64,000 bases of DNA from Verrucomicrobiia bacterium (GTDB lineage: Bacteria > Verrucomicrobiota > Verrucomicrobiia > Limisphaerales > UBA11358): NCBI GenBank assembly GCA_030038175.1, contig JASHPN010000372.1, forward strand, positions 2,169 to 66,168, written 5' to 3'. The position numbers and the translations under genes are program-made. Positions 2,883 through 33,369 of this stretch are shown in pieces. How positions within the stretch are numbered: position 1 is the stretch's first letter; each line of letters starts with the position of its first letter. Under the pieces are notes generated by a model. That model was not told where the DNA came from and did not search any database. It saw only the letters and a list, made by a program, of their open reading frames with translations.

Positions 2883-5800
2883 GTGAATGTCACGGTAACT
2901 CGCCTGAACCCCGTGGTGCTTTTGGCAGGATTGATTTGGATCTTCACTTTTTTTTCCTCGCAGGCGTCCACAAATACCGAATGGTTTACGCGCGTTTGGC
3001 AAACGGACGACGGCCTGCTCAATAACAATATCAGTGCGATTGCCCAGGGCCGTGACGGTTACCTTTGGATCGTCACGCCGGTGAGCCTCATGCGTTTTGA
3101 CGGGATTCGCTTCAGCCCATTCCCGGTCAAAGATTTTACCGGATCGATCGAGCCGCATAATATTCGCACACTCGTTTGCACCAGCACCGGCGCGCTTTTG
3201 ATCGTTCCGAATCTCGGACAAATGGCGGGTTTGAATCCGGATTTTTCATTGTTTCCCCTGCCGAATGGGAAACTGCCGAAAGGCTCGCCATGGGCGCTCG
3301 CCGAAACCCGCGATGGATCATTATGGCTTGGATATGCCAGCGCCATTTATCGGTTCAAAGATGGCCGGTTGACGAAATATACAGAAACCGACGGGGTGCC
3401 GGGGGCTGGCCCTCCTTTGTTGGCCAGCGATGGCGCCGGCAATCTCTGGATGGCCAAGGACAATAGAATTTGCGTTTTTCGGTCGGAGCGATTTGAGCCC
3501 ATCGCTCCGATGCGCGATGTGCAATGCCTGGCTGCCAGTCATACGAATGCGGTTTGGTTTGTCGCGCATGGGCATCTTTATAGCTGCGATGCCGAAGGCG
3601 CGCAGGACCGGGGCTCATTCGAAAATTCTCCCACAGCGATCGCAGAGGCGTTGCTGGAAGACCGCAAGGGCGCCATTTGGATTGGCACCGACGGACAAGG
3701 ATTGTTTCGCTTCAGCGATTCCGGGTTTCAAAGAGTGGAAACGTCTCATTCCTGCATCCTGAGCCTGGCCGAGGACGACGAAGGCGACATCTGGGTTGGG
3801 ACCGGGGGCGGAGGACTGGACCGGATTTCGCTGACTTCGGTTCGTCTTGAGGCCATGGAAAACAACGGCATTTTGTCTCAATTGCAGTCGGTTTGCCAAA
3901 GCGCCGACGGGAGGTTATGGGGAGCGACGCTGGACCAGATGCTTGCCTGCCGGATCAACGGCAAGTGGACGCCCGTTTTCACCAACGCCGCTTTTGCCGG
4001 AAACGTGCGATGCGTTGCGACCGCCCCGGATGAAGGGATTTGGATCGGGATGCGAGGAGGGCAGTTGTTGAGGCTGGCCAACACGAACGTGTTTGATTGC
4101 ACTCAAGGAAGCGACCCGGCCGGCGGCCCAATTTATGCCTTGTGTCCGACTCCATCGGGGGGCCTTTGGATTCTGCACCGCAACGTCCTGCGGTATTTGC
4201 AAGGCGGGCTTGGTCATCTCGTCGCTTTGCCGCCGCACGTGCCCCGAATTTCTGCCATTGCCGCGGATACGACTGGAAATCTTTGGCTGGGAGCAAAAGG
4301 GATGGTCCTGCGGTTTGATGGCACGAACTTCACGGATGAATCGGCGCTTCTGTCAATTTCAAATCACACGGTTTCCTGCCTCTATGGCGCATCCGACGGC
4401 AGTCTTTGGATCGGTTGCGGGGGACTGGGTTTGTTGCGGTTCAAAGACGGGCGGGTTGGGCGGATCGGGGTTCAGCAGGGTTTATTCTGCGATTATATTT
4501 CGGAAATCCAGGAAGATCGGAAAGGCTGGCTTTGGTTTGGCTCGGACCTGGGCATATTCAAAATCAGGCAGGCGAAATTGGAGGAGGCCATGGCGAACTC
4601 CCGCCTTCGGTTGCATCCCATCGTCTATGGACGAAATGAAGGCCTGTCGAGCCTGGAAGCCATCTTCAGCACCGCTTCGCCCTTTGTCATTCCTCGCGCG
4701 ATCCGGACACGCGATGGCAAAATATGGCTGCTGACCCACACTGGCGTCGTTGTGGCCGATCCCGATGTGCTGCCGGAAAATTCCGCGGCCCCGGCGGTAC
4801 GATTGACCCAGATCGCCATGGACGGACAAATCATTGCGTCCTATGGCGGTGTCGTTCCGACGCAAACGGTCGCTGATCCGGAAGAGTTGAACGCGCCTTT
4901 GCGTTTGCCGCCCGGGTTTCACCATTTGGAATTTGATTTCACGGCGTTTCAGTTCAGCGAACCGGAGAATATTCATTTTCGTTACCGGCTTGCGGGTTTC
5001 GACAATGGCTGGATAGACGCGGATACCGGACGGGCGGCCAATTATTCGCGCTTTGCGGCGGGAGACTACCAGTTTGAAGTCCAGGCCAGTGTCGGTGACG
5101 GGCCATGGAGCGACACTCCGGCCGCGCTGGCCTTCACGGTGACCCCGTTCTTCTGGCAGACCTGGTGGTTTCGCCTCGGCGCCGCGGTCTTTTTGGCTTC
5201 GCTCCTGGCGACAATCGTGCGTTTGATATCGTACCGGCAATTGCGCCTGAAATTGCGGGCGGTCGAACAACAGGCCGCGATCGAAAGGGAACGCGGGCGC
5301 ATTGCGCGGGACATCCACGATGACCTTGGAAACCGCCTGACTAAAATTGAATTACTAACCGGCCTGGCGCATCTGGATCGCGAAGCTCCGGGCAAGGCGG
5401 CCGGCCATATCCAGCAAATCTCAACGACGGCCCGGCAGGCGACCGATGCGCTGGATGAAATTGTCTGGGCGATCAATCCGCGCAACGACACCTTGCCGCA
5501 TCTGATCGGTTATATCGGACAATTCACGGTGGAATTTCTGCGCACGGCCGGTATTGGTTATCATGTTGATTTGCCGGATTTTCCGCCCGAGGAGCCGGTC
5601 TCCGCCGAAGTGCGCCACAACCTCTTTCTGGTCGTGAAAGAATCCCTCAACAATATCGTCTGCCACGCCGGCGCAACGGAGGTCTCCATGGTCATTGTTA
5701 TCGCTGATCATTCCTTTATCAACGTTACGGTTGAAGATAATGGGCGCGGTTTCAATGGCGAGGTCCTGAATGGCGGCGGAAACGGTTTGAAGAACATGCG

Positions 5801-5900
5801 GCAACGGATGGGTGAAATTGGCGGTTTCTTTGAAATCAAAACGACGCCCGGCGCCGGCACTCGGGTCTTGCTAAAAAGCCCCTGTCAGATAAAAAAATAA
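2883..5900 (+). CDS. Sensor histidine kinase with periplasmic two-component-regulator propeller repeats, Y_Y_Y-like domain, HisKA_3 and HATPase_c
   Basis: 1005-aa ORF with a GTG start and an N-terminal hydrophobic segment. About 12 reiterations of the DGxLWIGTxxGLxRF-type motif (RKGAIWIGTDGQGLFRF, DEGDIWVGTGGGGLDRI, SDGSLWIGCGGLGLLRFKDG and others). Also FRYRLAGFDNGW...GDYQFEVQA, a TM segment (WWFRLGAAVFLASLLATIV), the H-box RIARDIHDDLGNRL, and ATPase boxes (VKESLNNIVCHA, DNGRGF, GNGLKNMRQR). Confidence 0.9.
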   Translation: MNVTVTRLNPVVLLAGLIWIFTFFSSQASTNTEWFTRVWQTDDGLLNNNISAIAQGRDGYLWIVTPVSLMRFDGIRFSPFPVKDFTGSIEPHNIRTLVCTSTGALLIVPNLGQMAGLNPDFSLFPLPNGKLPKGSPWALAETRDGSLWLGYASAIYRFKDGRLTKYTETDGVPGAGPPLLASDGAGNLWMAKDNRICVFRSERFEPIAPMRDVQCLAASHTNAVWFVAHGHLYSCDAEGAQDRGSFENSPTAIAEALLEDRKGAIWIGTDGQGLFRFSDSGFQRVETSHSCILSLAEDDEGDIWVGTGGGGLDRISLTSVRLEAMENNGILSQLQSVCQSADGRLWGATLDQMLACRINGKWTPVFTNAAFAGNVRCVATAPDEGIWIGMRGGQLLRLANTNVFDCTQGSDPAGGPIYALCPTPSGGLWILHRNVLRYLQGGLGHLVALPPHVPRISAIAADTTGNLWLGAKGMVLRFDGTNFTDESALLSISNHTVSCLYGASDGSLWIGCGGLGLLRFKDGRVGRIGVQQGLFCDYISEIQEDRKGWLWFGSDLGIFKIRQAKLEEAMANSRLRLHPIVYGRNEGLSSLEAIFSTASPFVIPRAIRTRDGKIWLLTHTGVVVADPDVLPENSAAPAVRLTQIAMDGQIIASYGGVVPTQTVADPEELNAPLRLPPGFHHLEFDFTAFQFSEPENIHFRYRLAGFDNGWIDADTGRAANYSRFAAGDYQFEVQASVGDGPWSDTPAALAFTVTPFFWQTWWFRLGAAVFLASLLATIVRLISYRQLRLKLRAVEQQAAIERERGRIARDIHDDLGNRLTKIELLTGLAHLDREAPGKAAGHIQQISTTARQATDALDEIVWAINPRNDTLPHLIGYIGQFTVEFLRTAGIGYHVDLPDFPPEEPVSAEVRHNLFLVVKESLNNIVCHAGATEVSMVIVIADHSFINVTVEDNGRGFNGEVLNGGGNGLKNMRQRMGEIGGFFEIKTTPGAGTRVLLKSPCQIKK

Positions 5901-5904
5901 CCTT

Positions 5905-6573
5905 ATGGAAACACCAGCCGGCGTGCAGCCGATTACGATTGCCATTGTTGAAGACGACATTGAAACCCGCGCGTGTCTGGTTGAATTATTAAGACGAGAA
6001 CCGCGCGTCCTGTGCGTCGGCATTTATCCCACCGGGGAAGGGGCCGTGCGGGACATGCCGCTTATAAAACCGGAAGTGGCCCTGGTGGACATCAACCTGC
6101 CGGGGATGAGCGGCATTGAATGCGTGGGCCTGCTGAAAAAGCAACTTCCGAAATTGCAGGTGCTGGTCCTCACCAAATATGAAGAAAGCGATTTGATCTT
6201 CAACTCGCTGCGGGCCGGCGCGAGCGGCTATCTCCTCAAAAAGAGGTTTACCGTTGAATTGATTTCGGCCATTGAACAGGTGTATGCGGGCGGTTCGCCC
6301 ATGTCCATGCAGATCGCCCGCAAAGTCGTGGATCATTTTCGCGAGGCCAAACAGCCGGTGTCGGATTTGGACAAATTGACGACGCGGGAGCAGGAGGTCC
6401 TGGCTTTGCTCGCGAAAGGGCTTTTTTATAAGGAAATCAGCGTTCGGCTGGGGATCAGTTTCCACACGTTCCGCAACCATCAGCGGGCCATCTACGAAAA
6501 ACTGCATGTCCGTTCACGCACCGAGGCGGCGTTAAAATATCTCGCCGAAGAACAACGTGAAAATCAGACATAA
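5905..6573 (+). CDS. Response regulator, NarL/LuxR family (REC + LuxR-type HTH)
   Basis: 222 aa. Receiver motifs (IAIVEDD, VDINLPGMSG, LVLTK). C-terminal HTH LTTREQEVLALLAKGLFYKEISVRLGISFHTFRNHQRAIYEKL. Starts 4 nt after the kinase stop. Confidence 0.93.
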   Translation: METPAGVQPITIAIVEDDIETRACLVELLRREPRVLCVGIYPTGEGAVRDMPLIKPEVALVDINLPGMSGIECVGLLKKQLPKLQVLVLTKYEESDLIFNSLRAGASGYLLKKRFTVELISAIEQVYAGGSPMSMQIARKVVDHFREAKQPVSDLDKLTTREQEVLALLAKGLFYKEISVRLGISFHTFRNHQRAIYEKLHVRSRTEAALKYLAEEQRENQT

Positions 6574-6674
6574 TCGAAAAGAGAATTTGACTCGATATTA
6601 AAGTGAAGTTGCCCGACTCTGTGCCGATGGCAGAGAACTTGCGCATGAACGAGCGAAGGCCCGGAACGCCGGCA

Positions 6675-7094
6675 ATGAAGTCGCTGACCGAGTATCTCGA
6701 ATTTGAACTGCCCAACCGCCGGGGCTTCGTCAACATCACGGACGTGGTCGAGCGGCTCGTGGCCAAGAGCGGGGTCAAAGAAGGCCTTTGTCTCGTCAAT
6801 GCCATGCACATTACCGCGTCGGTCTTCATCAATGACGCGGAGGAAGGGCTGTTGCAGGATTACGAGGAATGGCTGGAACGCCTCGCGCCGCATGAGCCGA
6901 CCTCGCAATACCGGCACAATCGCACGGGCGAGGACAACGCCGATGCGCATTTAAAACGCCAGGTCATGGGCCGCGAAGTAGTGGTGGCCATTACCAAAGG
7001 CAAATTGGATTTCGGGCCGTGGGAACAAATCTTCTACGGCGAGTTTGACGGGCGCCGTCGCAAGCGCGCCCTGGTCAAAATCATCGGGGAATGA
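6675..7094 (+). CDS. yjbQ: YjbQ/UPF0047 family protein (secondary thiamine-phosphate synthase-like)
   Basis: The ORF track begins at a GTG at 6603. The ATG at 6675 ([10 protein letters not shown]...) gives the family-typical ~139 aa. Conserved stretches: [57 protein letters not shown]. Confidence 0.8.
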
Positions 7095-7281
7095 CGTTGC
7101 CCATGTGTGGGTCGTAGGCGTATGCCATTATTGCAGAAATTTCAAGTATGAGCGCGTTTGGACCCAATATTTCTATTCCGGAGCTCATTTTAAAACTGGT
7201 GGGAGAGAATCACAACGTGGCTGTGGGGCAGGGCACCTTGTGATTGCGCCCCAGTTGTAGTAGAAATCACCCTGGTGAAGG

Positions 7282-7650
7282 CTAAAGCCAACGTAGCGCG
7301 TAGTAGTTACAGATGAGGTGGATGGTGTTGTCGGCGACAATAAACAGCCAGGACGACATCCACACCGGCAAGTTGGTGTAGCCGGTTTCAGAGCATTCCT
7401 TCCACGGGTGGTAGCCCGGACCAAGCCAGTTCTTCGCCCAGACCACGTAACGCGCAAGTCGGAAACGATCCACAAAAAAATGGCTGACCAAAATCGCCAG
7501 CACCGCCCAGACCGAGCCGATGAGCAGGAAGGGCAGGCTGTAAACCACCACGTGGCACAGCGCCGGCCAGGTGCGCCGGGCCTTGTTTTGTGCCATCCAA
7601 TCGCTTTGGGTCAGGTAATCGCCGACAAGGTGCAGGATGAGTTGTAACAT
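7282..7650 (-). CDS. Small integral membrane protein, DUF3307-like
   Basis: 122 aa. N-terminal HLVGDYLTQSDWMA motif typical of DUF3307 and several hydrophobic helices. Starts 4 nt after the NHL gene stop, so it is the last gene of the porin-cytochrome operon. Confidence 0.6.
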   Translation of the reverse strand: MLQLILHLVGDYLTQSDWMAQNKARRTWPALCHVVVYSLPFLLIGSVWAVLAILVSHFFVDRFRLARYVVWAKNWLGPGYHPWKECSETGYTNLPVWMSSWLFIVADNTIHLICNYYALRWL

Positions 7651-7654
7651 AGGT

Positions 7655-8923
7655 CTAGGGGAGAAGGAGGACCCGATAAAATCGTTGCGGCGCAGCCCCG
7701 GCTGAGTTGTCGTCCACGCTCACAACAAAATTCGTCGCCGCCACCGGCGCGCCGAGATTTGACCATGCGGGACTTGCCGAACTTTGAAATTGCGGCTGGT
7801 AGGTTTTGCCCATCACGGCATTCCAGGAAAGGGCCACGATCGTGTTTCCACCGGACGATTGCAGTGTTACACTAAACGGAACAATCACATCCCGAATCAA
7901 CTCGTTGTAAGTGTCCGCCACGGCGAGCGAACCGTCCGCGCCGAACGCCAAGCCATAAGGATTGTAAAAACGTCCCTGGCCGTTGACGCCGTTGGCGCTG
8001 CCGGAAATCCCCACCGCGCCGCTCACCGTGCTCACGACGCCGTTGGTGGATATTTCGCGGATGGTTTGATTGAACGAATCCGCCACGAACAGGTTTCTGT
8101 TCCGGTCAAAAACAATTTCCGCCGGACTGCGGAACCGCGCTGAACTCAAACCGCCGTCCGCGGATCCATCCGCCCCGGCCAGTCCGGCAAAGGTGGTCAC
8201 GACGCCGGCCGGGGTGATTTTGCGGATAGTGTCGTTGTTTGCATCGCTGACGAAAAGATTGCCGGCGGCGTCGAAGGCCAGCCCAAGGGGGCCATTGAAC
8301 TGCGCGTTTGTGCCGGTGGCGTCGGTGGCTCCCCAGACTTGCGGCTCACCGGCAAACGTTGAAACCCCGCCGTTGGAGATTTCGCGGATGCAATGGTTAC
8401 GGCTGTCGGCGACGAAGATGGTCCCGTTCGTCGCCACGACGATTCCCAGCGGTGCGCTGAACAGCGCGCTGCCGGCGGCGCCATCGGCAAATCCGCCCGA
8501 ACCGGGAACGCCGGCAATGGTGGAAACCGCGCCGGCTGGCGTAATTTCGCGGATAATGTTGTTGCCGGTGTCGCTGACATACAAATTTCCACTTGCGTCA
8601 AACGCCAGTCCGCTTGGGGCGTCGAACTGCGCGTTCGTGCCAGTGCCGTTCATGCTGCCGGGCACTCCCAGTTGGCCGGCGAAGGTTGTGACCCAGCCGT
8701 TCGCCATGACTTCACGGACGGCGTCATTTTCCGAATCGGCAACGAAGAAATTTCCATTCGTGTCCGTGACGATGGCCGCCGGATCGCTGAACAGCGCGTT
8801 TGTGCCTGTGCCGTTCGTCGCGCCGCTCACCACCGCCTGCCCGGCGAGCGTGGCCACGGAATCCTGCGCCCGCAGCCCGGCGGCGAGCGAAAGCAGCAAC
8901 ATTATGACGATGGGTCTCTTCAT
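7655..8923 (-). CDS. Secreted NHL-repeat beta-propeller protein with C-terminal FYR-type beta-sandwich module
   Basis: 422 aa with signal peptide MKRPIVIMLLLSLAAGLRAQ. Six or more reiterations of FxxPxGLAFDAAGNLFVSDxxNxxIRKITPAGVVTTFAG. Its start overlaps the cytochrome stop as ATGA (8920-8923). Confidence 0.85.
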   Translation of the reverse strand: MKRPIVIMLLLSLAAGLRAQDSVATLAGQAVVSGATNGTGTNALFSDPAAIVTDTNGNFFVADSENDAVREVMANGWVTTFAGQLGVPGSMNGTGTNAQFDAPSGLAFDASGNLYVSDTGNNIIREITPAGAVSTIAGVPGSGGFADGAAGSALFSAPLGIVVATNGTIFVADSRNHCIREISNGGVSTFAGEPQVWGATDATGTNAQFNGPLGLAFDAAGNLFVSDANNDTIRKITPAGVVTTFAGLAGADGSADGGLSSARFRSPAEIVFDRNRNLFVADSFNQTIREISTNGVVSTVSGAVGISGSANGVNGQGRFYNPYGLAFGADGSLAVADTYNELIRDVIVPFSVTLQSSGGNTIVALSWNAVMGKTYQPQFQSSASPAWSNLGAPVAATNFVVSVDDNSAGAAPQRFYRVLLLP

Positions 8924-11900
8924 TCGCCACGGCGCATCAGGCGTTCGGTTTCAGTCGGCGGCGGTGAACTTTGGTTCTCCTCCACCGGGGATTGGAAGGT
9001 CTCAGTCGGTTTCAATTCCCCTCCGGCGCGCGTCATCAACTCGCCGCCGCGGACCGAAACATTTTCGACCGTATAAAGCGCCCCATCGCGCTCGTAGAAT
9101 TTTTCCATCTCGTCTAAATCGAATGGCCGCGAGCCGCGGCGGCCAAAAACCACCGTTTGATTGCCGCTTTCGTCCACCACGCGGTCCCGGTCCAACCCGC
9201 GCGAAACGGCCACCGCCGGCTCGCGCGTCGGGAAGGTGGCAATGAGTATCGGGTTCGGCGCCGGGCTGAAGCCCGCCGCCCCGGGAACATTTTGCGGCGA
9301 AATCAACTGAATGACGCGCAGGCCATTTTTGCCGTCGGCCACGAGCGCATATTCCGACGCGCTCACCGAGCCGACCTGCACGGCGCGCGTGTCGGTCAGT
9401 TGGCCGCCAGCCGTGTAAAGCCGTTCGAGCCGCGGCTTTTCGGGGTCCGTGATGTCAATGAACGCGACGCCGTCCGCGCCGTCGGCCACGTAGGCGTAAG
9501 TCCGCGCGAGATAAAACCGCTGCGCGTGTTTCAGGGGCACGAATGCGCCGGGAACCAGTTTGGGTTCCGTCGGGACGGTGATATCGAAGACCTTCAAGCC
9601 GTCATCGTCGGTCACAAACAGGTAGCGAAATTGCGCGCGGACGGCGCGCGGATTTTTCAGGCCGGCGGTGACTTCGCCGACAATTCCCGGCGCGGCCAGC
9701 GAATCGTTGTGCAGGCCCACGACGAACAGCCCGTTTTGTCCCACGACGTAAAGGTTTGTTCCAGCCATGAACGAACCCATCGCGCCGGTCAATTTTCCGT
9801 CGGGATTGAAGCGGATGATTTTCTCTCGTCCGAAAAAGTTATTGTTCGGGTCGCCGTCGAGCAACGTGCCGACCGTCACCATCACCAAACCTTCCTCGCG
9901 GTCGGTGACAAACACCCAGGCATAAATGGGGCTGACTTTTTGCTCCTCGTTCTCCGTCCGATGCGTGCGCAGTGGATCATCGGCGAGCGTGCTCGGCAGC
10001 GTGACGCTGGTGGCGAATGGGGTGGGAACATAGGTTCGCTGGCCGAGCGGCGACACCGGCGCGGTGGTGATGCGCTCAGAAAACCCTTTGTTGTCAATGT
10101 CCGCGACGTCGAAGACGCGGAAACCGCCCGCGCCATTGGCGGTGTAGAGATATTCGCCGCGCAACTGCAAATCGAGAATGTTATCGGCCTCGTGGTGATA
10201 CGCCTCCTTGAGTTCACGGTGATCGTCTTCGGTGAATCTCCGGTAGTCATCCGGATAAGCGAGCCGCTGCAAATGGCTGCCGCAGGCGGCCTGCGGTTCC
10301 TCCGGTTCCGTCCACGCGACGGCGTCGAAGCCGCCCTTGCCCTCGCCCACCCAGGCAAAGCGTCCGAAGAAATTGACCGTGCCGGTGCCGAAGCCAAGCA
10401 GCGAAGCCATCCACGCATTATTGTCATTCGCCCTGGAAAGGTGGCAATCCTCGCAATTCTTCGTCGTGCCAACGCCGCTGGTTGTGTGCATAAAAGCCGG
10501 ATTGAAAGCCTGGCCGCTGAATCCCTCGGCGCTGACGGTCTGCTGCTGCGAATAAACCCATTCGCGGTCCGCGTTTTGCGAGCTGACGAGCACGGCGGAC
10601 GACGAGCGAATCACCGCCATCCGGTGGCCCTTGTAAGTCGCGTCAATGCCGAGTTGGAACACATCGTCGCGGATGACCTGCGGATTGTAGCTCGTGAAAT
10701 TGCGCGTGTTGATGCCTTCGTATTTGTTCAGCGCCACGCGTTCGTTCGCTTTCATGGGCAGGTGGCAGCCGAAACACGACGTCGCCCACGAGGTATGGCA
10801 GACTTCGCAACTGACGTTCGAGTTGTCGTGCGCCAGTTTGCGCGGGCACTCGGATGGCGGGAGCACCGCGCCCCAGTTGATGCCGTCACGCCGGAGCGTT
10901 TTTGCGTAGGCGGACGCCGGGTCGTAATCCGGCGACTTGGGATCTATCGTGTCAATCGTTTGTGGGATTTCCCAGACCAAATCCGGCGTCATCTCCGAAC
11001 GCTGATACAGTTTCGTGCCGATGCGGAAGAAGCGCGGCCCCCACGGCGTGTTGTCGGCGCGCAGATCAACGTTGGCAACGGTCGAGCCGTTCCAGAGGCC
11101 GCCGTTTCCGCTGGTGATAAGTGTCGGACGCTGGTTAATGGTGCCATGGCAGTCAATGCACTCGACGGTCGTCGCGGCCCGTGACTCGCCGTAGAGCAGG
11201 CCGTTGCCGTGAACGTCCACGTCGAAATGGCAGTCCACGCACTGCATCCCGTGGCGGAGGTGCTCGTCTTCCAGGTGAACCGCTTTGGCGAACTTGTCCG
11301 GGTCGCTGAACGGAATCATTTTGCCGTCGCGGTCCAGCAAACGTCCCTGGCGGTCGTGCAAAAAGACGGCGCGGAACATCCAGCCGTGCCCGTGGTAATC
11401 GGCGAATTGCGTGTCTTTCAGCTTCGGGTTCAATTCGGCGGTCTTTTCAAGAAAATCCAGATTGCCCCAAAGCCCGCGCGCCGCGGCGGCTTCGGGATTA
11501 TCTTCCACCGCGCGGGTCAATTCCGCCGGCGTCGGATCTTTTTGCTTCTTCGGATACATCATTTCACCGTCGGTTTCCTCGTCCCACCAGGTGTAACCGA
11601 GGTATGTATTCACGAACAGATCGCCCTGGTGCATGTGGCAGGTCATGCACTGGGAGGAGGGGATGGCGCGCGTGAATTGGTGGACGATCGCATGGCCGCG
11701 CTCGTCCTTGCGGATGGCCTTGTCGCCGGAAAAGCTCAGGCCCTGGTTGCCGTATTTGTAATACCAGCCCGAATCCGTCGGCGAGCGATCGTTCGCATAG
11801 ACGACATGGCACGCCGAACAGCCGCTGCTGCGGTAATCGCCCGGATGATTGTTCGAGCCGAGAAAGTCGAGCAACGGATCGTTCAGCCGCATTTTCTGCA

Positions 11901-12762
11901 AATTCAAAAACACCGGATCGGTCCGGTTCAACGTGCCGAGGCCACGGTCGCTCAACCGGTGCGCCGGTTTGCCGGGCTCTTCGAACGGGTTCGGGCTGCC
12001 GGTCGGCAACGGCTTTTCCTGGCCCCGCTCGAAAATCCGGAGAACGTTTCCCGGCTGGCTGACTTCAAACCGCGGCAACGGGTCAATGAAGGGCAAAAGG
12101 CCGTGAAGCCGGGTCATTTCGGGCGTGACGGGAATCGGACTTTCCAGCCGCAGCGGCACGCCGTCCGCGCCGTAAGCCTGGCCGAAGCGGTAATTTTTCT
12201 CCGGGAACGCGCCGTTGTTGTAAAGCGCGGCGCCCCAGAGCATCGCGCCGTGCCGCATGATGCTGTGGCCGACTTCCTGGACGATTTGGCCGTGGCACAG
12301 GCCGCAGGCTTTCTGCGCCACGCGCAAATCGCCGGGATTGACGAACTGGATGAATTCCGGCGACTCATGGTTGAGCAACGTGGCCGAGTCGTTCGGCAGC
12401 GCGGAGCTTTGCCAGAAAATTGGGTTGCGGGGCGCCACATGCGCCTCGCGCTCGGTGAGGCCCGGCGCGGAGTTGCCACCATGGCAGTCGGTGCAACCCA
12501 GGATGACGCTGGGCGAATGATGCATGGATTCAATGCCCGCGTGGCATTCCAGGCAACCGCGCGATTTCCAGTCGGCGTCCGCCTGCGACTGGTCAATTCG
12601 ATTTGGCGGCGGCAGTTCAACGGCGGCATTGGGCGGCGGTTCTTTTGGCACGGAAATCACCGGACCCGAACCGTCGCTTTGGGCGAACAGCGCGAGGCAG
12701 GCGGCGAACCATCCCGCCGCCGCCAGGGCGGCGAATCTCCGCCAGTTGGAATTTTCTTTCAT
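8920..12762 (-). CDS. Secreted decahaem c-type cytochrome fused to a C-terminal LVIVD-repeat beta-propeller
   Basis: 1280 aa with a signal peptide (FAALAAAGWFAACLALFAQS). Ten CxxCH motifs: CLECH, CTDCH, CGLCH, CSACH, CMTCH, CVDCH, CIDCH, CEVCH, CFGCH, CEDCH. The C-terminal third carries LVIVD-type repeats (LYTANGAGGFRVFDVADI, LFVTDDDGLKVFDIT, AYVADGADGVAFIDITDP, ALVADGKNGLRVIQL). Confidence 0.9.
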   Translation of the reverse strand: MKENSNWRRFAALAAAGWFAACLALFAQSDGSGPVISVPKEPPPNAAVELPPPNRIDQSQADADWKSRGCLECHAGIESMHHSPSVILGCTDCHGGNSAPGLTEREAHVAPRNPIFWQSSALPNDSATLLNHESPEFIQFVNPGDLRVAQKACGLCHGQIVQEVGHSIMRHGAMLWGAALYNNGAFPEKNYRFGQAYGADGVPLRLESPIPVTPEMTRLHGLLPFIDPLPRFEVSQPGNVLRIFERGQEKPLPTGSPNPFEEPGKPAHRLSDRGLGTLNRTDPVFLNLQKMRLNDPLLDFLGSNNHPGDYRSSGCSACHVVYANDRSPTDSGWYYKYGNQGLSFSGDKAIRKDERGHAIVHQFTRAIPSSQCMTCHMHQGDLFVNTYLGYTWWDEETDGEMMYPKKQKDPTPAELTRAVEDNPEAAAARGLWGNLDFLEKTAELNPKLKDTQFADYHGHGWMFRAVFLHDRQGRLLDRDGKMIPFSDPDKFAKAVHLEDEHLRHGMQCVDCHFDVDVHGNGLLYGESRAATTVECIDCHGTINQRPTLITSGNGGLWNGSTVANVDLRADNTPWGPRFFRIGTKLYQRSEMTPDLVWEIPQTIDTIDPKSPDYDPASAYAKTLRRDGINWGAVLPPSECPRKLAHDNSNVSCEVCHTSWATSCFGCHLPMKANERVALNKYEGINTRNFTSYNPQVIRDDVFQLGIDATYKGHRMAVIRSSSAVLVSSQNADREWVYSQQQTVSAEGFSGQAFNPAFMHTTSGVGTTKNCEDCHLSRANDNNAWMASLLGFGTGTVNFFGRFAWVGEGKGGFDAVAWTEPEEPQAACGSHLQRLAYPDDYRRFTEDDHRELKEAYHHEADNILDLQLRGEYLYTANGAGGFRVFDVADIDNKGFSERITTAPVSPLGQRTYVPTPFATSVTLPSTLADDPLRTHRTENEEQKVSPIYAWVFVTDREEGLVMVTVGTLLDGDPNNNFFGREKIIRFNPDGKLTGAMGSFMAGTNLYVVGQNGLFVVGLHNDSLAAPGIVGEVTAGLKNPRAVRAQFRYLFVTDDDGLKVFDITVPTEPKLVPGAFVPLKHAQRFYLARTYAYVADGADGVAFIDITDPEKPRLERLYTAGGQLTDTRAVQVGSVSASEYALVADGKNGLRVIQLISPQNVPGAAGFSPAPNPILIATFPTREPAVAVSRGLDRDRVVDESGNQTVVFGRRGSRPFDLDEMEKFYERDGALYTVENVSVRGGELMTRAGGELKPTETFQSPVEENQSSPPPTETERLMRRGE

Positions 12763-12763
12763 A

Positions 12764-15121
12764 CTAATAGGTAAAAGTCACGGCAATCAAACCGCTGTAC
12801 GGAAACGCGCTGGAATTGGCCGCCGGACCGCTGGCATCGAAACCGGGAATGGGATTGGGATTCGTGTCATAAATATCGCGGTAACCCTGCCCCGGAATCA
12901 GTACGCCGAAGCCGGCGGAAATAATGATGTTGTCCGTCAGCAGCGGCCGATACTGGAAGCCGAGGCTCAAGTCCCAGCCCACCTGGTTGCTGATGTTGGG
13001 CGTCATCAGCGCGGTTTCGATGGGGTCGGTATCCGCGAACAAAATGTAATTCGCGTTGAGAAACGAACGGAGTTTCGGCGTCAGGTCAAACTCGGCGCCG
13101 AGGCCAAAAATATAAACGCCGGGATTCACGAAATTGGCCTGGCCTTCGGTTTTGCTCGTGCGCAAATCCGGCACGAGACTGTCCGGGTCCTTCAAATTGA
13201 CCATCGTTCCGCCCAGATTGAAGCCCTGGCGCGTCCAGAAACTAAACGGGCCGCCGGTGAAATTCGGATTGTCCACGATGGTGTCGAATCCGCCCGCCGT
13301 GTTGCCGGTCGCGTTGCCGTCGCCGGACGCGTAGAAAAACGACGCTTTGTAGCGCGCCCAGTCGAAGTCGCAGGAAAGTTCCAGCGCGGCCATTTGCGCG
13401 TTAATGTCCACCGGGTGGCCGGCGAGACCGTTGAAGTCGTCGTGGCCGAGCGCCTCGTAAAACTGGTGCGACAAATTCAGCCGGCCGATGTGGCCGTCGC
13501 CGCCCCAGCCGAGGTAAGACACGGTCACGTCATGGGGTTGCACCGTGCCGAGCGGTTCCGGCCGGACCAGGACGCCGTTTTCATCGTAATGCTCGCCGCC
13601 GTGGTCAATGTTCTCCACAAAACTCCATTCCGCCGTATAGCCCGGCCAGATGAAATCCTGCCGGTAAAGGTTCGCGATGGCCACATCCTGGCGGCGGCTG
13701 GCGAGGGTATTCAACTCCGAATCGGTGTCTTTTTCCCGCATGTCGAAGACCGCGAGATTGTATTGATAAAGATTGTTGTCGAGATTTCCAAACAGCCGCG
13801 CGCCGAGGTTCACGTCGTTGAAGAGGAAGCCGCGAAAGTCCGCGTTGAACGGCTGGTTGCCAATGCGGAGCGACATGAAATCGTAGTTGTCCGACAAATC
13901 CAGCAGGTGAATTTCCAGGAACGCCTGCTGAAGCGAGAAAAACGTCCTGAGCCGCACGGTGGACTGCGTCCAGCGATAATTGTTCGCCGGGCCGACCTGG
14001 CCGTTGAGCAGTGTGCCGATGTCGCCGGGATTTTGCACGAAACCGTTTTTCGGCGGGGGAGTGTTGTTGCCGGCGAGCGCGCCCGTGGGCGAAGGCGAAA
14101 CCACGCCGGTCTCCTGTGTCTCGAGATAATTCACATTAAACACCGGCTGAATGTCCAGGTCCCACGTCACCGGTCGGAACGCCGTGTCGCCCTGGAATAA
14201 AATCGTCTCGAACGCCAGATAATTCTGGATGCTCAATTCCTGGCCGTCGCCGTAAAATTCGTATTCGCCCGGCACCGCGCCGCTCACCTGGCTCGGCGTC
14301 GGCAGGCGCCGAAATTCCGTGTCCGTCTCCGCCGAGGCCGTGAGATCGAGGAATATGTCCTGCCCAATGACCGGCACATCGCCTTTGAGCACACTCTGGC
14401 GGTAGGGCGCCCAGAGCGCCGGTTCCGGCGTTTCATAGGGCTGCTCGATCACGCCGCCGGTGTAGCGTTCCCAAGGCACGAAGCCGAGGCGCCAGCGGTC
14501 GGGCCGCGGCGCGGTGTTGGTCGGATAATCCGACGGGCCTGGTGAGTACTTCGGATAGCCGAAGTCCGGATAAATTTTCAATTCGCGCCGGGTGTCCCGC
14601 CGCGGCAAGGCCAGTCCATTGGTGAGCGGTTCGGTGCCATAACCGCCCGGTACCGGAGGGGGTGGTGGAAGAAATTCGCCGAGCCGCACGTCTGCGCGCG
14701 GCAACGCGAGGTCCGGCGGAATCGGAGGCGGCGTGAAGATCGGCGGCGCGGTCGGCTCGATGAATAGCGCGGCCGGCGGGTTTGTCGGCGGAAGCAGGCC
14801 GGCGCCGGGGTCAGGATTGAAAATATTCGGCGAGAGCGGCGGCGTGTTGGTGCTGACGAGCACGCGGAGGCGCCAGCGGAAATCCGTCTGGGGCAACCCC
14901 GGCAATTCCAGCACGCCCGGGTCCGGGTTGAAAATATCCGGCGAGAGCGGCGGCGTGTTGGTCGTGACCGCCTGATACGGCTTGAGCCGGTCCACGTCAT
15001 TCGTGGCCGTCGTTCCGCCACCATAGCTTTTCAGTGGAAGCGACAACATGGCGATCCAACCGAGCAAGACCGGTTTTCCAAGGGTTTCAAGCCGACGTAA
15101 TTTCGCCGACATCTTCGCCAT
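12764..15121 (-). CDS. Putative outer-membrane beta-barrel (porin-like) protein with Pro-rich N-terminal extension
   Basis: 785 aa with an N-terminal signal-like segment. Pro-rich region with a duplicated TNTPPLSP(D/N)IFNPDPG unit. Long alternating-hydrophobicity region rich in aromatic/Gly/Asn, with terminal aromatic residues (...GLIAVTFTY). Its stop is 1 nt before the cytochrome start. Confidence 0.6.
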   Translation of the reverse strand: MAKMSAKLRRLETLGKPVLLGWIAMLSLPLKSYGGGTTATNDVDRLKPYQAVTTNTPPLSPDIFNPDPGVLELPGLPQTDFRWRLRVLVSTNTPPLSPNIFNPDPGAGLLPPTNPPAALFIEPTAPPIFTPPPIPPDLALPRADVRLGEFLPPPPPVPGGYGTEPLTNGLALPRRDTRRELKIYPDFGYPKYSPGPSDYPTNTAPRPDRWRLGFVPWERYTGGVIEQPYETPEPALWAPYRQSVLKGDVPVIGQDIFLDLTASAETDTEFRRLPTPSQVSGAVPGEYEFYGDGQELSIQNYLAFETILFQGDTAFRPVTWDLDIQPVFNVNYLETQETGVVSPSPTGALAGNNTPPPKNGFVQNPGDIGTLLNGQVGPANNYRWTQSTVRLRTFFSLQQAFLEIHLLDLSDNYDFMSLRIGNQPFNADFRGFLFNDVNLGARLFGNLDNNLYQYNLAVFDMREKDTDSELNTLASRRQDVAIANLYRQDFIWPGYTAEWSFVENIDHGGEHYDENGVLVRPEPLGTVQPHDVTVSYLGWGGDGHIGRLNLSHQFYEALGHDDFNGLAGHPVDINAQMAALELSCDFDWARYKASFFYASGDGNATGNTAGGFDTIVDNPNFTGGPFSFWTRQGFNLGGTMVNLKDPDSLVPDLRTSKTEGQANFVNPGVYIFGLGAEFDLTPKLRSFLNANYILFADTDPIETALMTPNISNQVGWDLSLGFQYRPLLTDNIIISAGFGVLIPGQGYRDIYDTNPNPIPGFDASGPAANSSAFPYSGLIAVTFTY

Positions 15122-15167
15122 AAGAAATTGTTTATTTTAAGAAAGCAAGCCTTTATCTTCGGCTGCG

Positions 15168-16748
15168 GTGAAACGAATTTGCGGAATTTTGTTGTTCGCC
15201 CTCCTGGCCGCGCGGCCCGCGTCTGCGCAACTCACGCTGGCCGACGTGCAGACGGTCATCGCGCAGGCCGTCAGCCGTGCCGTCATGCTCACCAACTCGC
15301 CCCTGGCCACCAACGCCGTTATTGCCGTCGCCGACCGGGAAGGCTGGGTGCTGGGCGTCTGGGCGCTGAACACCAATTCATCGTCCGCCGACCCGCTCGT
15401 CGCCGACGCCATCGCCAAGGCCGCCAGCGCGGCGTTTTTGAGCAGCGACCAAAACGCGTTTTCCTCGCGCACCGCCGGCGACATCGTGCAGCAGCATTTT
15501 CCGCCGGGGATTGCCGATACCGCGCCGGGCCCGCTCGTCGGGGTGAATTTTTCGCAATTGGCCTTTTCCGACATCAACAAGATGAAAGCGCCCGGCAGCG
15601 TCCTCACCGACAGCAATTCGCCCGGTTTCTCGCTCGTGCCGGCGCCGATTCCAATTACCGGCGGACTCGCCGGCACGCCCGGCGGTTTGCCACTTTACCT
15701 CAATGGCTCGCTCGTCGGCGCCATCGGCGTTTCCGGCGACGGTTTGCAACCAACGGACATTACCCCCGGCGTCATCGCCAGCCCGGACGCCAATGAGGAC
15801 GTGGCTCTCGCCGGACAAACCGGCTATCAGCCATCGGCGGCGATCGTTGCTTCGCAGGTGCTCCTGAACGGTCTCCGGTTCGAATACGTCGAGAGTTCCA
15901 CGGCCCTCGGCGCGGTGATTCCGTTCGCGAGCCTGCCGGGGACGAATATTTTGCCATTCGTACTCATGGCTTCTCCCCCGAGTTTCCCATATCCGGTCGC
16001 GACGATGGGCGGCGAGACCGGCCAGTTGCGGCAACCCATCATTGCCGATCCCTCGACCGTGCCGCTGCCGGGCGGCACGGCCCGGCTCTCGGCGCTGGAC
16101 GTTTCCAATATCATTACCGCCGCCGCGAACCGGGCGCGAACCACGCGCGCCGCTCTCCGCCTGCCGCGCGGCCAGCCGACGCAGATGTTCATCACGGTCG
16201 TCAACAACCCAAATTCCAACGGCGTGCCGCCAATGGTCCTGGGCACGTTCTGCACCTCGCCCGACGCCACGCGGTTCAGTTGGGACATTGCGGTGCAGAA
16301 GGCGCGCACCTGCGTTTTCGTTTCCGCCACCAATCGCGCCTATTCCGCGCGCACGGTCAACTTCCTGTCCCAAAGCACCTATCCACCGGGCATTGACGGC
16401 ACCGAGCCGGGGATCTTTTTTGGATTGCAGGAACGCTTTTCCATCATCACACCGGTTTCGATTCTCGCGACGAACCCGGTGGACGGCGCGGTGTTTATGA
16501 CTTCGACGAATGTCAATCCGAACCTGCCGAACGGCCTGACCATATTTCCCGGCGGCTTTCCACTTTACCGCAACGGCGTGCTCATCGGCGCGATTGCGGT
16601 GAGCGGCGATGGCGTGGACGAGGACGACTTGATTGCGGCCAGCGGCGCGGCGCTGTTCCTCGCGCCGGTGCCCATCCGCGCCGACCAGACGCAATACCGC
16701 GGCGCTTTGTTGCCGTTCGCCAAATTCCCGCGAAATCCGGCGCTTTAA
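15168..16748 (+). CDS. Secreted protein with two GlcG/HbpS-like (DUF336) domains
   Basis: 526 aa, GTG start, signal peptide MKRICGILLFALLAARPASAQ. Each half carries the DUF336 hallmark (GGLPLYLNGSLVGAIGVSGDG and GGFPLYRNGVLIGAIAVSGDGVDEDD). Divergent from the porin operon across only 46 nt. Confidence 0.75.
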   Translation: MKRICGILLFALLAARPASAQLTLADVQTVIAQAVSRAVMLTNSPLATNAVIAVADREGWVLGVWALNTNSSSADPLVADAIAKAASAAFLSSDQNAFSSRTAGDIVQQHFPPGIADTAPGPLVGVNFSQLAFSDINKMKAPGSVLTDSNSPGFSLVPAPIPITGGLAGTPGGLPLYLNGSLVGAIGVSGDGLQPTDITPGVIASPDANEDVALAGQTGYQPSAAIVASQVLLNGLRFEYVESSTALGAVIPFASLPGTNILPFVLMASPPSFPYPVATMGGETGQLRQPIIADPSTVPLPGGTARLSALDVSNIITAAANRARTTRAALRLPRGQPTQMFITVVNNPNSNGVPPMVLGTFCTSPDATRFSWDIAVQKARTCVFVSATNRAYSARTVNFLSQSTYPPGIDGTEPGIFFGLQERFSIITPVSILATNPVDGAVFMTSTNVNPNLPNGLTIFPGGFPLYRNGVLIGAIAVSGDGVDEDDLIAASGAALFLAPVPIRADQTQYRGALLPFAKFPRNPAL

Positions 16749-16750
16749 AA

Positions 16751-18859
16751 TCACTTTATCTCCATCTCCCAAATGCCGCTCCAATGGTCCGGCGGCCGGG
16801 CCGAAAGTTCGGCGCAGCGGGCGGCCAGCGCGCTGCCGGGGCCGTCGGAAAATTCCCGGGCGAGCTTTTCAAATTCCGTCCGCGCTTCGGCAAATTTTCC
16901 GGAAAAATATATTTCGTACGCCGCCGGGTAACGCGCGCAAAGCTCCGCGTAGTTTGCCGGGGTACAGGGATTTTCGTATTCGAACAATTCCACCGGTTCG
17001 GTTTTGCCCTTGACGATCACGCGGTCCACCAGCCGCCGGTTGCCTGGCACGTTGAATTGAGCCAGGGCTTCGCGCGTCACCAGCATCCGCACCCCGTAAA
17101 ATTTCGTGAGCAACTCCACGCGCGCCGCCTCGTTCACCGTGTCGCCGACCAGGCCGTAATCGAGCCGCAATGCCGAACCTTTGTTGCCGATCAGCACCGG
17201 GCCGCGGTGCAATGCGACGCCGTAGCCGAACAACTTCCGAACCTCGGCCGGCAGGGTTGCGCGCAAATCCTCCATCGCGCGGATGAGATTCATCGCCGCG
17301 CGTCCGGCGCGATCGGCGGCGTCCGGCTGCTCTTGCGGCGCGCCCCAGTAGCTTAAAAACTGGTCGCCGAGAAAATGCTCCAGATTCCCCTCCTCGCTCA
17401 TGACGGCGCTGGTCTGCGCGTCAAAGACGCGGTTGAGCAAATCGAACATGCCTTGCGGCCCGAGCATTTCGGCCAGGGGCGTCGAATTCCGCAAGTCCGT
17501 CAGCAGCACAGTCACTTCCGCCCGGCGCGGTTGCATCGAGCCGGGATCCGCCAGCACCTCATCCAGCACGCGGGGTGAGAAATAAAGTCCCATGGTGTGC
17601 CGCAGCTTCATCCGCTCCAGCCGTTCGGTGACGAAATCATATCCCAGCCCGCCCACGCCGGCGAAGGCCAGAACCAGCAGAGGACTGACCACCGGGAAAA
17701 TCGCGTTCACGTGATTGAAGAAAAATTCCGCGGCATAGAAAATACCCGCGCCGGCCACCAATATCACCAGCAGCCGTCGGACCGGCGCCCGGATGAAGAG
17801 ACATAACACAGCTGCGAACAGGCCGGTCAGCACGATGATGGCGCCGCTGGCGAACGGCGGCGTTTCGCCGATAAATTCGCCATGCAGCGCCGCATTGAGG
17901 ACGTTCAGGTGAATTTCCGGCCCGGCCATTTCCTGGCCGAACGGCGTGCGATGAAAGTCCTGGAAAATATTGGCCGTCGGACCAACCAGAATGAGCTTGC
18001 CCGCAAAAAACTTTCCACTGCCATAAGTGCGTTCCCAAAGTTCCGGCGTCAACACATCACCCAATGGGATCACCCGCCACGTTCCAGGCGGGCCGGTGAA
18101 ACGGATTCGTTGCGGTTTCCCGACGGCCGGCATTTTTTTCCCCGCGCCGAATTTCTCCAGCGCCCGGGCGGCGAAAGATTCGATAACAGCGCCGGGCGCG
18201 GCGTTCACCGCATCACCCAACTCATGGTTGGCGACGCAGAAATGCGCGTGGCGGAATACATCATCGCCGTCCGGCCAGAGGTTGACAAAGCCAACGCGCG
18301 AATCCAGGGCGGCAGGGCGGTCGGGCGTATCGGGAATCAAATCTGCGGTTGGCGCGGCGAATTGTGCCGGTTGACCGCGGTCCGTTTCTTCGAGATTAAA
18401 CACACCGCCGATGACAAGGTGGCTTGAATATTCGTTCAGGGCGAGGCGCAATTCGCGATCGCCGTTCGCTTCGCTGGCGAAAACCAAATCAATCGCAATC
18501 GTTTTGGCGCCGGCATCGGAAAGTTGCCGGATGAGCCGCGCCCAGACGATTCGCGACCATGGGAATTGGCCCCGCAGCGCGGCGAGTACCGGGTCATCGG
18601 CTGCCTCGGCGGGGGAAATGGCGTCGCTGCAGCTGGGCCGGTCAATTCCAATCAGAACGAGGTTGGTGTCGGCCGGCGTGAAACGCCCGTGGCGCGCAAA
18701 AAAATCCTGGACGAAATTTTCCGCGGCGTTTAACGGCGCGGCCAATGGCGGCGGGCCGCGAAAATCCACTGCCAGCACGGCGAGCGTGACCAATACGCAG
18801 AAGCAGCCGAGGACGGCCGTGCGGCGCGGCGGGCGGCGTCTATTGAATTGTTCGGGCAT
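16751..18859 (-). CDS. CHASE2-domain class III adenylate/guanylate cyclase (paralog 1)
   Basis: 702 aa. N-terminal TM, ~300-aa extracytoplasmic CHASE2-like region (VLIGIDRPS, IAIDLVFASE, WPDGDDVFRH), three TM helices. Cyclase core VTVLLTDLRNSTPLAE...FLGDQFLSYWGAP...YGLVGDTVNEAARVE. Helical, TPR-like tail. Confidence 0.85.
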   Translation of the reverse strand: MPEQFNRRRPPRRTAVLGCFCVLVTLAVLAVDFRGPPPLAAPLNAAENFVQDFFARHGRFTPADTNLVLIGIDRPSCSDAISPAEAADDPVLAALRGQFPWSRIVWARLIRQLSDAGAKTIAIDLVFASEANGDRELRLALNEYSSHLVIGGVFNLEETDRGQPAQFAAPTADLIPDTPDRPAALDSRVGFVNLWPDGDDVFRHAHFCVANHELGDAVNAAPGAVIESFAARALEKFGAGKKMPAVGKPQRIRFTGPPGTWRVIPLGDVLTPELWERTYGSGKFFAGKLILVGPTANIFQDFHRTPFGQEMAGPEIHLNVLNAALHGEFIGETPPFASGAIIVLTGLFAAVLCLFIRAPVRRLLVILVAGAGIFYAAEFFFNHVNAIFPVVSPLLVLAFAGVGGLGYDFVTERLERMKLRHTMGLYFSPRVLDEVLADPGSMQPRRAEVTVLLTDLRNSTPLAEMLGPQGMFDLLNRVFDAQTSAVMSEEGNLEHFLGDQFLSYWGAPQEQPDAADRAGRAAMNLIRAMEDLRATLPAEVRKLFGYGVALHRGPVLIGNKGSALRLDYGLVGDTVNEAARVELLTKFYGVRMLVTREALAQFNVPGNRRLVDRVIVKGKTEPVELFEYENPCTPANYAELCARYPAAYEIYFSGKFAEARTEFEKLAREFSDGPGSALAARCAELSARPPDHWSGIWEMEIK

Positions 18860-18926
18860 GGCTTCCGGCAGGTTGACAACTCCCGACCGGTGGTGTAAAG
18901 ATGATTGAAATTAGTCGGAGCGCCGG

Positions 18927-19778: not shown

Positions 19779-19789
19779 AAATCGATTCC

Positions 19790-25161: not shown

Positions 25162-25163
25162 TT

Positions 25164-26471: not shown

Positions 26472-26500
26472 GCCGCCACTCCATTAACGAATTTATCGTC

Positions 26501-29711: not shown

Positions 29712-29886
29712 CGGGCGAAGTTACGGCATCAGACACGCGGTGTGAAGCAAAACCCGTTTGCTGAGGCTGGGAGCCGCTGGCCGGCCCCGAACCATTGTTC
29801 TTGCTTTAGTTTCAAAATTACATATAGGTGTTCCCGTAATTCCCTTGCGGCCAACCCGGCTATATCCAGGCGTATGGCTTCCGCCC

Positions 29887-33345: not shown

Positions 33346-33369
33346 AGGTGCATCTTGACACTGTTCTTG

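Follow-up and report, generated by a model that had tools for sequence, protein, structure and literature searches.

A conserved outer-membrane barrel and propeller-fused decahaem cytochrome in Verrucomicrobiota and Acidobacteriota: candidate components of an envelope-spanning electron-transfer module

The locus described here lies in a stretch of 64,000 nucleotides (nt) from a Verrucomicrobiia bacterium (order Limisphaerales, UBA11358; contig JASHPN010000372.1 of assembly GCA_030038175.1), hereafter called the window, to which all coordinates refer unless another locus is named. Four consecutive minus-strand open reading frames of 785, 1280, 422 and 122 amino acids occupy positions 7282-15121. 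They correspond, in the order of transcription, to a predicted outer-membrane beta-barrel (12764-15121), a decahaem cytochrome fused to a beta-propeller (8920-12762), a secreted NHL-repeat propeller (7655-8923) and a small hydrophobic DUF3307 protein (7282-7650). Direct reading of the junctions gave a 1-nt gap between the barrel and cytochrome genes (TAG-T-ATG), a 4-nt ATGA overlap between the cytochrome and NHL genes and a 4-nt gap before the last gene. An initial annotation, made from the letters alone, had proposed that this cluster encodes a porin-cytochrome conduit; its description of the four reading frames, of their three junctions and of a decahaem cytochrome fused to a propeller was borne out by the coordinates of the open reading frame list, the reading of the junctions and the count of haem motifs. 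Promoter and terminator scans stayed at background level and an Rfam scan of the window returned no match. As detailed below, the barrel and cytochrome genes form a conserved core, and this core belongs to a larger redox module.

The 785-residue protein is composed of a signal sequence, a proline-rich N-terminal region (residues ~1-200) and an AlgE-like barrel (residues ~200-785). In an AlphaFold2 model computed with 42 homologues, residues ~250-785 fold into about 18-20 long antiparallel strands; the mean predicted local distance difference test (pLDDT) score is low, at 50, with many blocks at 70-87, and the model is therefore used for the fold class, the strand count being approximate. All 50 matches listed in a Foldseek comparison with the PDB are outer-membrane barrels of 16-18 strands. 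The top match is the 18-strand AlgE (E 2e-11, template modelling score ~0.45 for this low-confidence model), followed by OccD and OccK channels, and MtrB is absent from these 50. The C-terminal end (...TFTY) is conserved as T-x-T-Y in the alignment of homologues. The generic traits of an outer-membrane barrel are thus all present: a signal sequence, an antiparallel all-beta C-terminal domain, an aromatic last residue and structural matches. No Pfam or NCBIfam model, MtrB_PioB included, matched the protein at E<=0.01, and MtrB_PioB matched none of 31 diverse relatives either. The alginate export family (Alginate_exp, PF13372) was matched weakly by two of these 31 relatives (E 3e-4), and several Opitutia homologues carry a precomputed PF13372 assignment, the one from Rariglobus hedericola being named 'Alginate export domain-containing protein' in UniRef. 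The window barrel does not reach the gathering score of PF13372 and is related to AlgE at the superfamily level only. PDB sequence searches with the barrel, the cytochrome and their profiles gave nothing meaningful. The initial annotation called the protein barrel-like and proposed a structure prediction with strand count as a check; the modelled strands, the uniform class of the listed Foldseek matches, the TFTY end and the PF13372 relatives agree with that description.

The N-terminal region of the barrel protein appears to be exchangeable. Alignment to distant relatives begins at about residue 202 of the window protein, and the Pfam domains found in the 31 relatives comprise SPOR (1/31), AMIN (1/31), CarboxypepD_reg (2/31) and SH3 (2/31), as well as cytochrome c domains. 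We take these domains, from their inferred positions, to be replacements of the proline-rich region, which would hence be a variable periplasmic module. The window barrel itself has no CxxCH motif and a single cysteine. Two copies of the motif NTPPLSPxIFNPDPG are present in its proline-rich region (residues ~55-107, window 14800-15000), and the relative P0262, which is fused to a tetrahaem domain, displays LFNPDP within that cytochrome domain (residues 56-70); this could be a relic, a docking motif or a chance resemblance. Close homologues share at residues ~18-25 a lipobox-like majority consensus, L-x-G-C-L; the window protein has a tryptophan there (VLLGWIAM), and lipidation of the barrel may differ between lineages.

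The 1280-residue cytochrome can be divided into a haem domain (residues 1-850, 10213-12762) and an LVIVD-type beta-propeller with its tail (residues 851-1280, 8920-10212). The former starts with a hydrophobic Sec-type signal-like segment and contains exactly ten CxxCH motifs, at residues 70, 90, 153, 315, 372, 508, 535, 652, 663 and 770, a sparse spacing of about 70 residues per haem. The latter is recognized by a Pfam LVIVD match near the C-terminus and by AlphaFold2, in whose model residues ~850-1190 form a propeller of high confidence (pLDDT 80-93). Foldseek saw the propeller only and returned generic 7-blade propellers, NirN among them; the haem domain found no homologue among PDB sequences. 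Membership of the ExtM family (NF040943) was considered and rejected, the score being 65.4 bits for a cutoff of 800 bits and the similarity being confined to two local stretches, the best of which (residues 498-547) covers the sixth and seventh haem motifs.

This architecture is highly conserved. Every complete homologue of the cytochrome measures ~1260-1400 residues, with the exception of one of 1550 residues (locus L066), and the ten CxxCH motifs are kept at conserved spacing, apart from most Acidobacteria loci, which have nine (ten in L080). Because the architecture is retained in all complete homologues, the propeller fusion is ancestral and not a local oddity. The cytochrome is also better conserved than its neighbour, with identities across loci of 52-87% as compared to 46-80% for the barrel. 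Within the haem domain, 13 histidines and 6 methionines outside the motifs are kept in at least 90% of 50 relatives, enough to six-coordinate all ten haems, so that no open catalytic haem is obvious. Residues kept in at least 96% of 50 sequences from both phyla number 295 in positions 1-849 and 117 in the propeller and tail, and none of these 117 is a histidine, cysteine, methionine or tryptophan. A catalytic propeller of the kind found in cd1, NosZ or pyrroloquinoline quinone enzymes was dropped as the leading idea on this ground; the propeller is unlikely to bear a cofactor and more likely to act as a scaffold or in binding. A 26-residue charged block that follows the propeller (residues ~1189-1213, window 9070-9160) is mostly conserved across both phyla and may serve to bind a partner.

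More than 1,000 close homologues of the barrel were found; the named ones all belong to Verrucomicrobiota and are labelled 'hypothetical protein'. The family as a whole comprises 1,777 protein clusters at 50% identity (E<=1e-3) and is represented by at least 591 confirmed matches in species-representative genomes. In order to examine gene order, a set of loci (numbered L) was assembled from the 80 best genome loci and from 80 metagenome loci, the latter fetched with a haem-fused variant of the barrel described below, and searched with the window proteins using tblastn. Enough sequence was available in 121 of them (68 genome and 53 metagenome loci). The 80 best genome loci are distributed among Limisphaerales/Pedosphaera, Opitutia, Chthoniobacterales and Terriglobia, and those of Opitutia include the isolate IMCC26134 (L064, positions 2407745-2429508) and a metagenome-assembled genome (MAG) labelled Opitutus sp. 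GAS368 (L048). The cytochrome gene lies directly downstream of the barrel gene in 119 of the 121 testable loci, with a median gap of 219 nt, an arrangement far beyond chance. The search for homologous clusters proposed by the initial annotation thus retrieved the pair in both Verrucomicrobiota and Acidobacteriota. One of the two exceptions, L041 (OY969763.1, a 6.03-Mb chromosome, 5466-12957), has the barrel with no 1280-residue cytochrome after it, and its upstream decahaem cytochrome is truncated to 411 residues with 6 haem motifs; it looks like a decayed copy of the module. Contigs with a cluster of the Verrucomicrobia type also occur in MAGs labelled Klebsiella, Bifidobacterium, Proteobacteria, Haliangiales and Akkermansia muciniphila (L017, L023, L024, L081; also L021, L027 and L065), these odd labels being probably binning or labelling errors.

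A variant of the barrel bears on its role. In P0262, P0271 and P0329, three of the 150 top barrel representatives, a c3/c7-like domain with four CxxCH motifs precedes the barrel at its N-terminus. Independent soil contigs confirmed this fusion over its full length, with the decahaem-propeller gene immediately downstream; the variant belongs to one soil clade. Given that the exchangeable N-terminal domains would be periplasmic, the tetrahaem domain would sit on the periplasmic side of the barrel, a location that fits poorly with a channel for solutes or polysaccharides alone. Among the evidence obtained in silico, this fusion is the strongest hint at a role of the barrel in electron transfer.

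The two remaining genes of the cluster are far less constant. The 422-residue protein matches Pfam NHL (E 9e-31) and combines a signal-like N-terminus with an extra C-terminal domain of ~80 residues; its gene is found in 17 of the 68 genome loci, and the junctions are equally tight where it occurs (L164). The 122-residue protein scores 31.5 bits with DUF3307, whose cutoff is 23 bits, and was seen only in the window and in L081, which amounts to 1 of the 68 genome loci. The idea of the four genes as an indivisible system was rejected on these counts. What stands of the four-gene unit proposed by the initial annotation is its barrel-cytochrome part, which is the conserved core; the NHL propeller is an accessory of some lineages, and the DUF3307 gene is probably co-transcribed yet incidental.

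A second tightly packed minus-strand operon of four genes is located at 21060-26471. Its products are a membrane-anchored FNR-like reductase with flavin adenine dinucleotide (FAD), NAD(P)H and C-terminal 2Fe-2S domains behind an N-terminal anchor (25164-26471); a cytoplasmic protein in which domain searches identified cyclic nucleotide monophosphate (cNMP)-binding domains fused to a 2x[4Fe-4S] ferredoxin-like domain (23437-25161); a membrane protein of about five hydrophobic segments, a putative di-haem b carrier (22622-23557, true start probably near 23443); and a dense decahaem c-type cytochrome, mhc552, with an N-terminal hydrophobic anchor (21060-22718, true start probably near 22625). The latter has ten CxxCH motifs, one hydrophobic segment and ~36 residues per haem, and its homologues all have ten motifs. 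Four transmembrane histidines are conserved in the membrane protein as two pairs, H114/H128 and H285/H299, each 14 residues apart, which is how di-haem-b electron carriers are patterned.

In Opitutia, the FNR-like, cNMP/Fe-S, membrane and decahaem genes are found directly upstream of the barrel and cytochrome genes on the same strand, with the FNR-like gene at the head of the operon. In IMCC26134 the six genes are contiguous on one strand and nearly gapless, at 3880-15709 of L064. The cNMP/Fe-S, membrane and decahaem genes also adjoin the pair in acidobacterial loci, and the cNMP/Fe-S protein, which is conserved in Verrucomicrobiota, retains ~30% identity there (L079, 18121-19731). The Opitutia operon places the 21060-26471 chain and the barrel-cytochrome pair in the same module. 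The initial annotation had suggested that the two together could be a full pathway from the cytoplasm to the cell surface; synteny supports the association, whereas its function as such a pathway is a proposal.

Further genes accompany the module. Divergent from the barrel gene, positions 15168-16748 (+) encode a 526-residue protein with a signal-like N-terminus and a Pfam HbpS-like (GlcG/DUF336-type) domain. This gene is present in 54 of the 68 genome loci and 32 of the 53 metagenome loci, and also in the acidobacterial locus L079. The start codons of the two divergent genes are only 46 nt apart (15122-15167), the spacer being ~53 nt in L001, and either the promoters extend into coding sequence or the genes start further downstream than annotated. 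A c554-like cytochrome with three CxxCH motifs (26207-27715, +; listed start probably too far upstream) is divergent from the FNR-like gene and is found in the same position in IMCC26134. Adenylate/guanylate cyclases with a CHASE2 sensor are encoded at 16751-18859 (-) and, as a second copy, at 27702-29711 (-), and recur in several related loci (L001, L004, L005, L008 and L014). They may supply the cyclic nucleotide to which the cNMP/Fe-S subunit would respond; cyclic-nucleotide control of the module is suggested by their flanking position together with the cNMP domains.

Both cyclases belong to a repeated unit, in which a CHASE2 cyclase (-) is divergent from a FecR-domain protein (+), at 16751-20815 and 27702-35337. 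In the first copy the FecR gene (18927-19778) is followed by that of a 341-residue secreted protein with no Pfam match; the second contains a 1195-residue FecR/TPR protein (29758-33345) and then a 571-residue NHL-repeat protein (33622-35337). Beyond the DUF3307 gene, the plus strand encodes a 1005-residue Reg_prop/Y_Y_Y hybrid histidine kinase and a LuxR-type response regulator (2883-6573), followed by a UPF0047 protein (6603-7094). More distant parts of the window carry a 2474-residue single-module type I polyketide synthase with the domain order KS-AT-DH-ER-KR-ACP-TE (47101-54525, -) and a 2479-residue surface-type protein with Laminin_G_3 and Ig repeats (55723-63162, +).

The interpretation to which we lean, with a confidence a little short of even, is that the barrel and the decahaem-propeller cytochrome may form the outer-membrane end of a conserved envelope-spanning electron-transfer module. 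The proposed mechanism can be summarized as follows. Cytoplasmic NAD(P)H would reduce the FAD and 2Fe-2S centres of the FNR-like protein, from which electrons would move on to the 2x[4Fe-4S] domain of the cNMP-binding protein, possibly gated by cyclic AMP or cyclic GMP from the CHASE2 cyclases. They would then cross the inner membrane through the putative di-haem-b protein and be taken up by the anchored dense decahaem mhc552, which would bridge the periplasm. The terminal complex at the outer membrane, made of the AlgE-like barrel and the 1280-residue cytochrome, would finally deliver the electrons to an acceptor that is either external or bound to the surface, for instance Fe(III), Mn(IV) or humic quinones. 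A non-catalytic role, as scaffold or binding domains, is envisaged for the cytochrome's own propeller and, in loci that have it, for the NHL propeller; the secreted HbpS-like protein would be an additional accessory in the periplasm. We infer in this scheme the direction of electron flow, the location of the cytochrome, its contact with the barrel, the acceptor and the cNMP gating. As a route for electrons to the cell surface, the pair is plausible but unproven.

Several observations weigh against this interpretation. Energy conservation of the usual kind would be missing from a chain fed by NAD(P)H and independent of quinones, an oddity in a respiratory pathway. The FNR-like gene at its entry was not detected by tblastn in the Acidobacteria loci, and the membrane protein scores 20.4 bits with DUF4405, below the Pfam cutoff of 26.7 bits, although DUF4405 proteins have been shown to bind haem b (PMC11334425). 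At the outer end, a conserved lipobox cysteine was not found in the cytochrome family and no secretion route is evident, so the cytochrome may be purely periplasmic; its haem domain gave no usable AlphaFold2 model (pLDDT <50). The barrel is likened to 18-strand AlgE/Occ barrels with occluded or narrow pores, unlike MtrB, which is a 26-strand barrel, and a haem domain may not fit inside a barrel of this narrow type.

Chief among the alternatives is a substrate channel that supplies a periplasmic reductase, which we hold to be possible but rather unlikely. The barrel would act in the manner of AlgE or OprD and let in a soluble oxidant or let out a product (a metalloid oxyanion, a sulfur or nitrogen species or a chelated metal), the cytochrome would be a terminal reductase served by the same inner-membrane chain, and no electrons would cross the outer membrane. 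The top structural matches, which are substrate-specific 18-strand channels, and the PF13372 relatives agree with such a role, whereas a mere solute channel would hardly account for the fusion of a tetrahaem domain to the barrel. The Sec-type signal of the cytochrome, devoid of a lipobox, would also suit a periplasmic enzyme, and its very high conservation across 1280 residues is more enzyme-like than wire-like; the conserved histidines and methionines are nevertheless sufficient for ten six-coordinate haems and leave no obvious open catalytic one. Nitrite reductase cd1 and NirN exemplify cytochrome-propeller fusions that are enzymes, and NirN is among the Foldseek matches, but the propeller considered here lacks the conserved histidine, cysteine, methionine or tryptophan expected for a catalytic metal or cofactor. 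The local similarity to ExtM points in the direction of the channel as well, ExtM being part of the Geobacter ext cluster, in which the porin-like ExtI has been implicated in selenite and tellurite reduction (PMC5877670).

Two lesser rivals retain the redox chain and change its purpose. An assimilatory NAD(P)H-driven ferric or metal reductase, similar in function to eukaryotic FRE/NOX or bacterial Fre-MsrQ, which would reduce Fe(III) outside the cell or in the periplasm for uptake as Fe(II), possibly through the barrel, is improbable in our estimate: entry through NAD(P)H and FAD and a putative di-haem-b protein with NOX/MsrQ-like histidine spacing do bypass the quinone pool, and FecR-domain genes and the haem-related HbpS-like protein are nearby, but twenty c-type haems and a 1280-residue terminal protein would be a heavy investment for this purpose, no Feo or other Fe(II) transporter is found among the annotated open reading frames, and the FecR genes adjoin CHASE2 cyclases. 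Less probable still is an inward flow, in which extracellular Fe(II), reduced humics or a partner cell would donate electrons to the pair, for delivery to the inside by the chain. Porin-cytochrome systems such as MtoAB, PioAB and Cyc2 can run inward (PMC6344600) and the tetrahaem-barrel fusions are similar in layout to Cyc2, itself a fused cytochrome-porin; however, an FNR-like NAD(P)H/FAD protein and low-potential Fe-S clusters make up the inner end of the chain, their reduction from Fe(II) is thermodynamically uphill, and neither an energy-coupling subunit nor a linked terminal oxidase is evident. Finally, structural and weak Pfam similarity to AlgE could indicate that the barrel is a polysaccharide exporter and that the cytochrome is a coincidental, functionally unrelated neighbour. 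The adjacency in 119 of 121 loci of two phyla, the gene junctions of 1 nt to 4 nt, the haem domains fused to the barrel and the lack of alginate or polysaccharide synthesis genes in the annotated flanks render this coincidence nearly excluded.

Considered at the level of sequence, the two-gene core and the larger redox module around it can be described as real, strongly conserved and uncharacterised, a non-homologous variant of the porin-cytochrome principle. A wider proposal, which we advance only tentatively, is that both phyla share a horizontally spread, quinone-independent, NAD(P)H-fed and cNMP-gated export chain that ends in an AlgE-like barrel and a propeller-fused decahaem cytochrome. 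Verrucomicrobiota and Acidobacteriota are among the most abundant phyla of soil, peat, freshwater and humic lakes, and where they dominate, in soils, peat and humic lakes, the redox cycling of iron and humic substances bears on the turnover of carbon and the emission of methane. To our knowledge, no mechanism of extracellular electron transfer has been established in either phylum. If the proposal is true, both would possess a previously unrecognised capacity to reduce Fe(III) or humics. A working conduit would represent a further independent invention of the porin-cytochrome principle with an unusual trio of features, namely an AlgE-like barrel, a terminal cytochrome fused to a propeller and an entry through NAD(P)H and Fe-S centres instead of quinol, and the barrel-cytochrome pair would then provide a marker for metagenomic surveys. 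The existence of cultured carriers, IMCC26134 and Rariglobus hedericola, makes these possibilities directly testable.

Comparison with known systems places the cluster, as far as family models and motifs can tell, outside the Mtr, Pcc, Cyc2 and ExtM families. MtrCAB, MtoAB and PioAB, known from Shewanella and Fe(II) oxidisers, share with it the logic of an outer-membrane barrel gene beside decahaem c-type cytochrome genes, and the layout of a porin-cytochrome conduit, a barrel gene conserved beside a multihaem cytochrome gene, is that of the 119 loci. The Mtr/Pcc-like logic invoked by the initial annotation therefore holds for gene layout and not for family membership, the barrel being AlgE/Occ-like. 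There is no sequence homology to the Mtr systems in either the barrel (MtrB/PioB) or the cytochrome (DmsE/MtrA): TIGR03508 (DmsE/MtrA) does not match the 1280-residue protein, and the c554-like protein at 26207-27715 alone among the neighbours touches this model, with 20.9 bits for a cutoff of 192 bits. MtrC-type surface cytochromes are sparse in haem and MtrA is dense. By this measure mhc552 (~36 residues per haem) resembles MtrA and the 1280-residue protein (~70) resembles MtrC; the sparse haem spacing of the 1280-residue protein is also the reason why it is not regarded as an MtrA-like insert. As opposed to Mtr, the dense decahaem cytochrome has here an inner-membrane anchor, the terminal one is no lipoprotein and carries a fused propeller, and the chain starts at NAD(P)H and Fe-S centres where that of Mtr starts at a quinol dehydrogenase.

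A 'novel porin-multihaem cytochrome' cluster was proposed in freshwater and bog Verrucomicrobia by He et al. in 2017, with homologues named in IMCC26134 and Opitutus sp. GAS368 (PMC5615132). Both of these carry the present barrel-cytochrome pair; a protein search for homologues returned none under the name Opitutus terrae. In the model of He et al. an adjacent periplasmic cytochrome has eight conserved haem sites, whereas both decahaem cytochromes described here have ten in complete homologues, and some of the clusters of that model include an extra 'extracellular' multihaem cytochrome. The text of that paper makes no mention of a propeller fusion, an NHL protein, an HbpS-like protein or an NAD(P)H/cNMP inner-membrane module. 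A prior description of this cluster by He et al. is hence possible but unproven. No paper tying an alginate-export-type barrel to multihaem cytochromes was met in the literature searched, and the present barrel differs from AlgE in its genomic context, which is made of redox proteins and not of polysaccharide synthesis.

Fusion of haem and barrel is an idea shared with Cyc2 of Acidithiobacillus and Zetaproteobacteria, which has one haem and a smaller barrel (PMC6344600), and is found here in P0262, P0271 and P0329. The fusion in these relatives carries four haems, the window barrel carries none, and a separate 1280-residue cytochrome always follows; assignment of the window barrel to the Cyc2 type was rejected for its lack of a haem motif. 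NHL propellers are co-encoded with outer-membrane multihaem cytochromes in D. ferrophilus (DFE_448-451 and DFE_461-465) and in the uetA-J genes of Tenderiales, in the latter together with a barrel, and were proposed to stabilise the complex (PMC5815863; bioRxiv 10.1101/2022.05.06.490989). The co-translated NHL propeller, which the initial annotation regarded as a departure from the Mtr and Pcc models, is in view of these examples not unusual. Compared by layout, the present loci differ from those of D. ferrophilus and Uet in that a second propeller is fused to the cytochrome and that the NHL gene occurs in a minority of loci. The inner-membrane chain, for its part, recalls NOX/FRE and Fre-MsrQ by the combination of an NAD(P)H/FAD reductase and two pairs of transmembrane histidines ~14 residues apart. 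It is distinguished from them by the distribution of these components among separate subunits, by the cNMP-binding 2x[4Fe-4S] protein inserted between them and by the predicted hand-over of electrons to c-type decahaem cytochromes.

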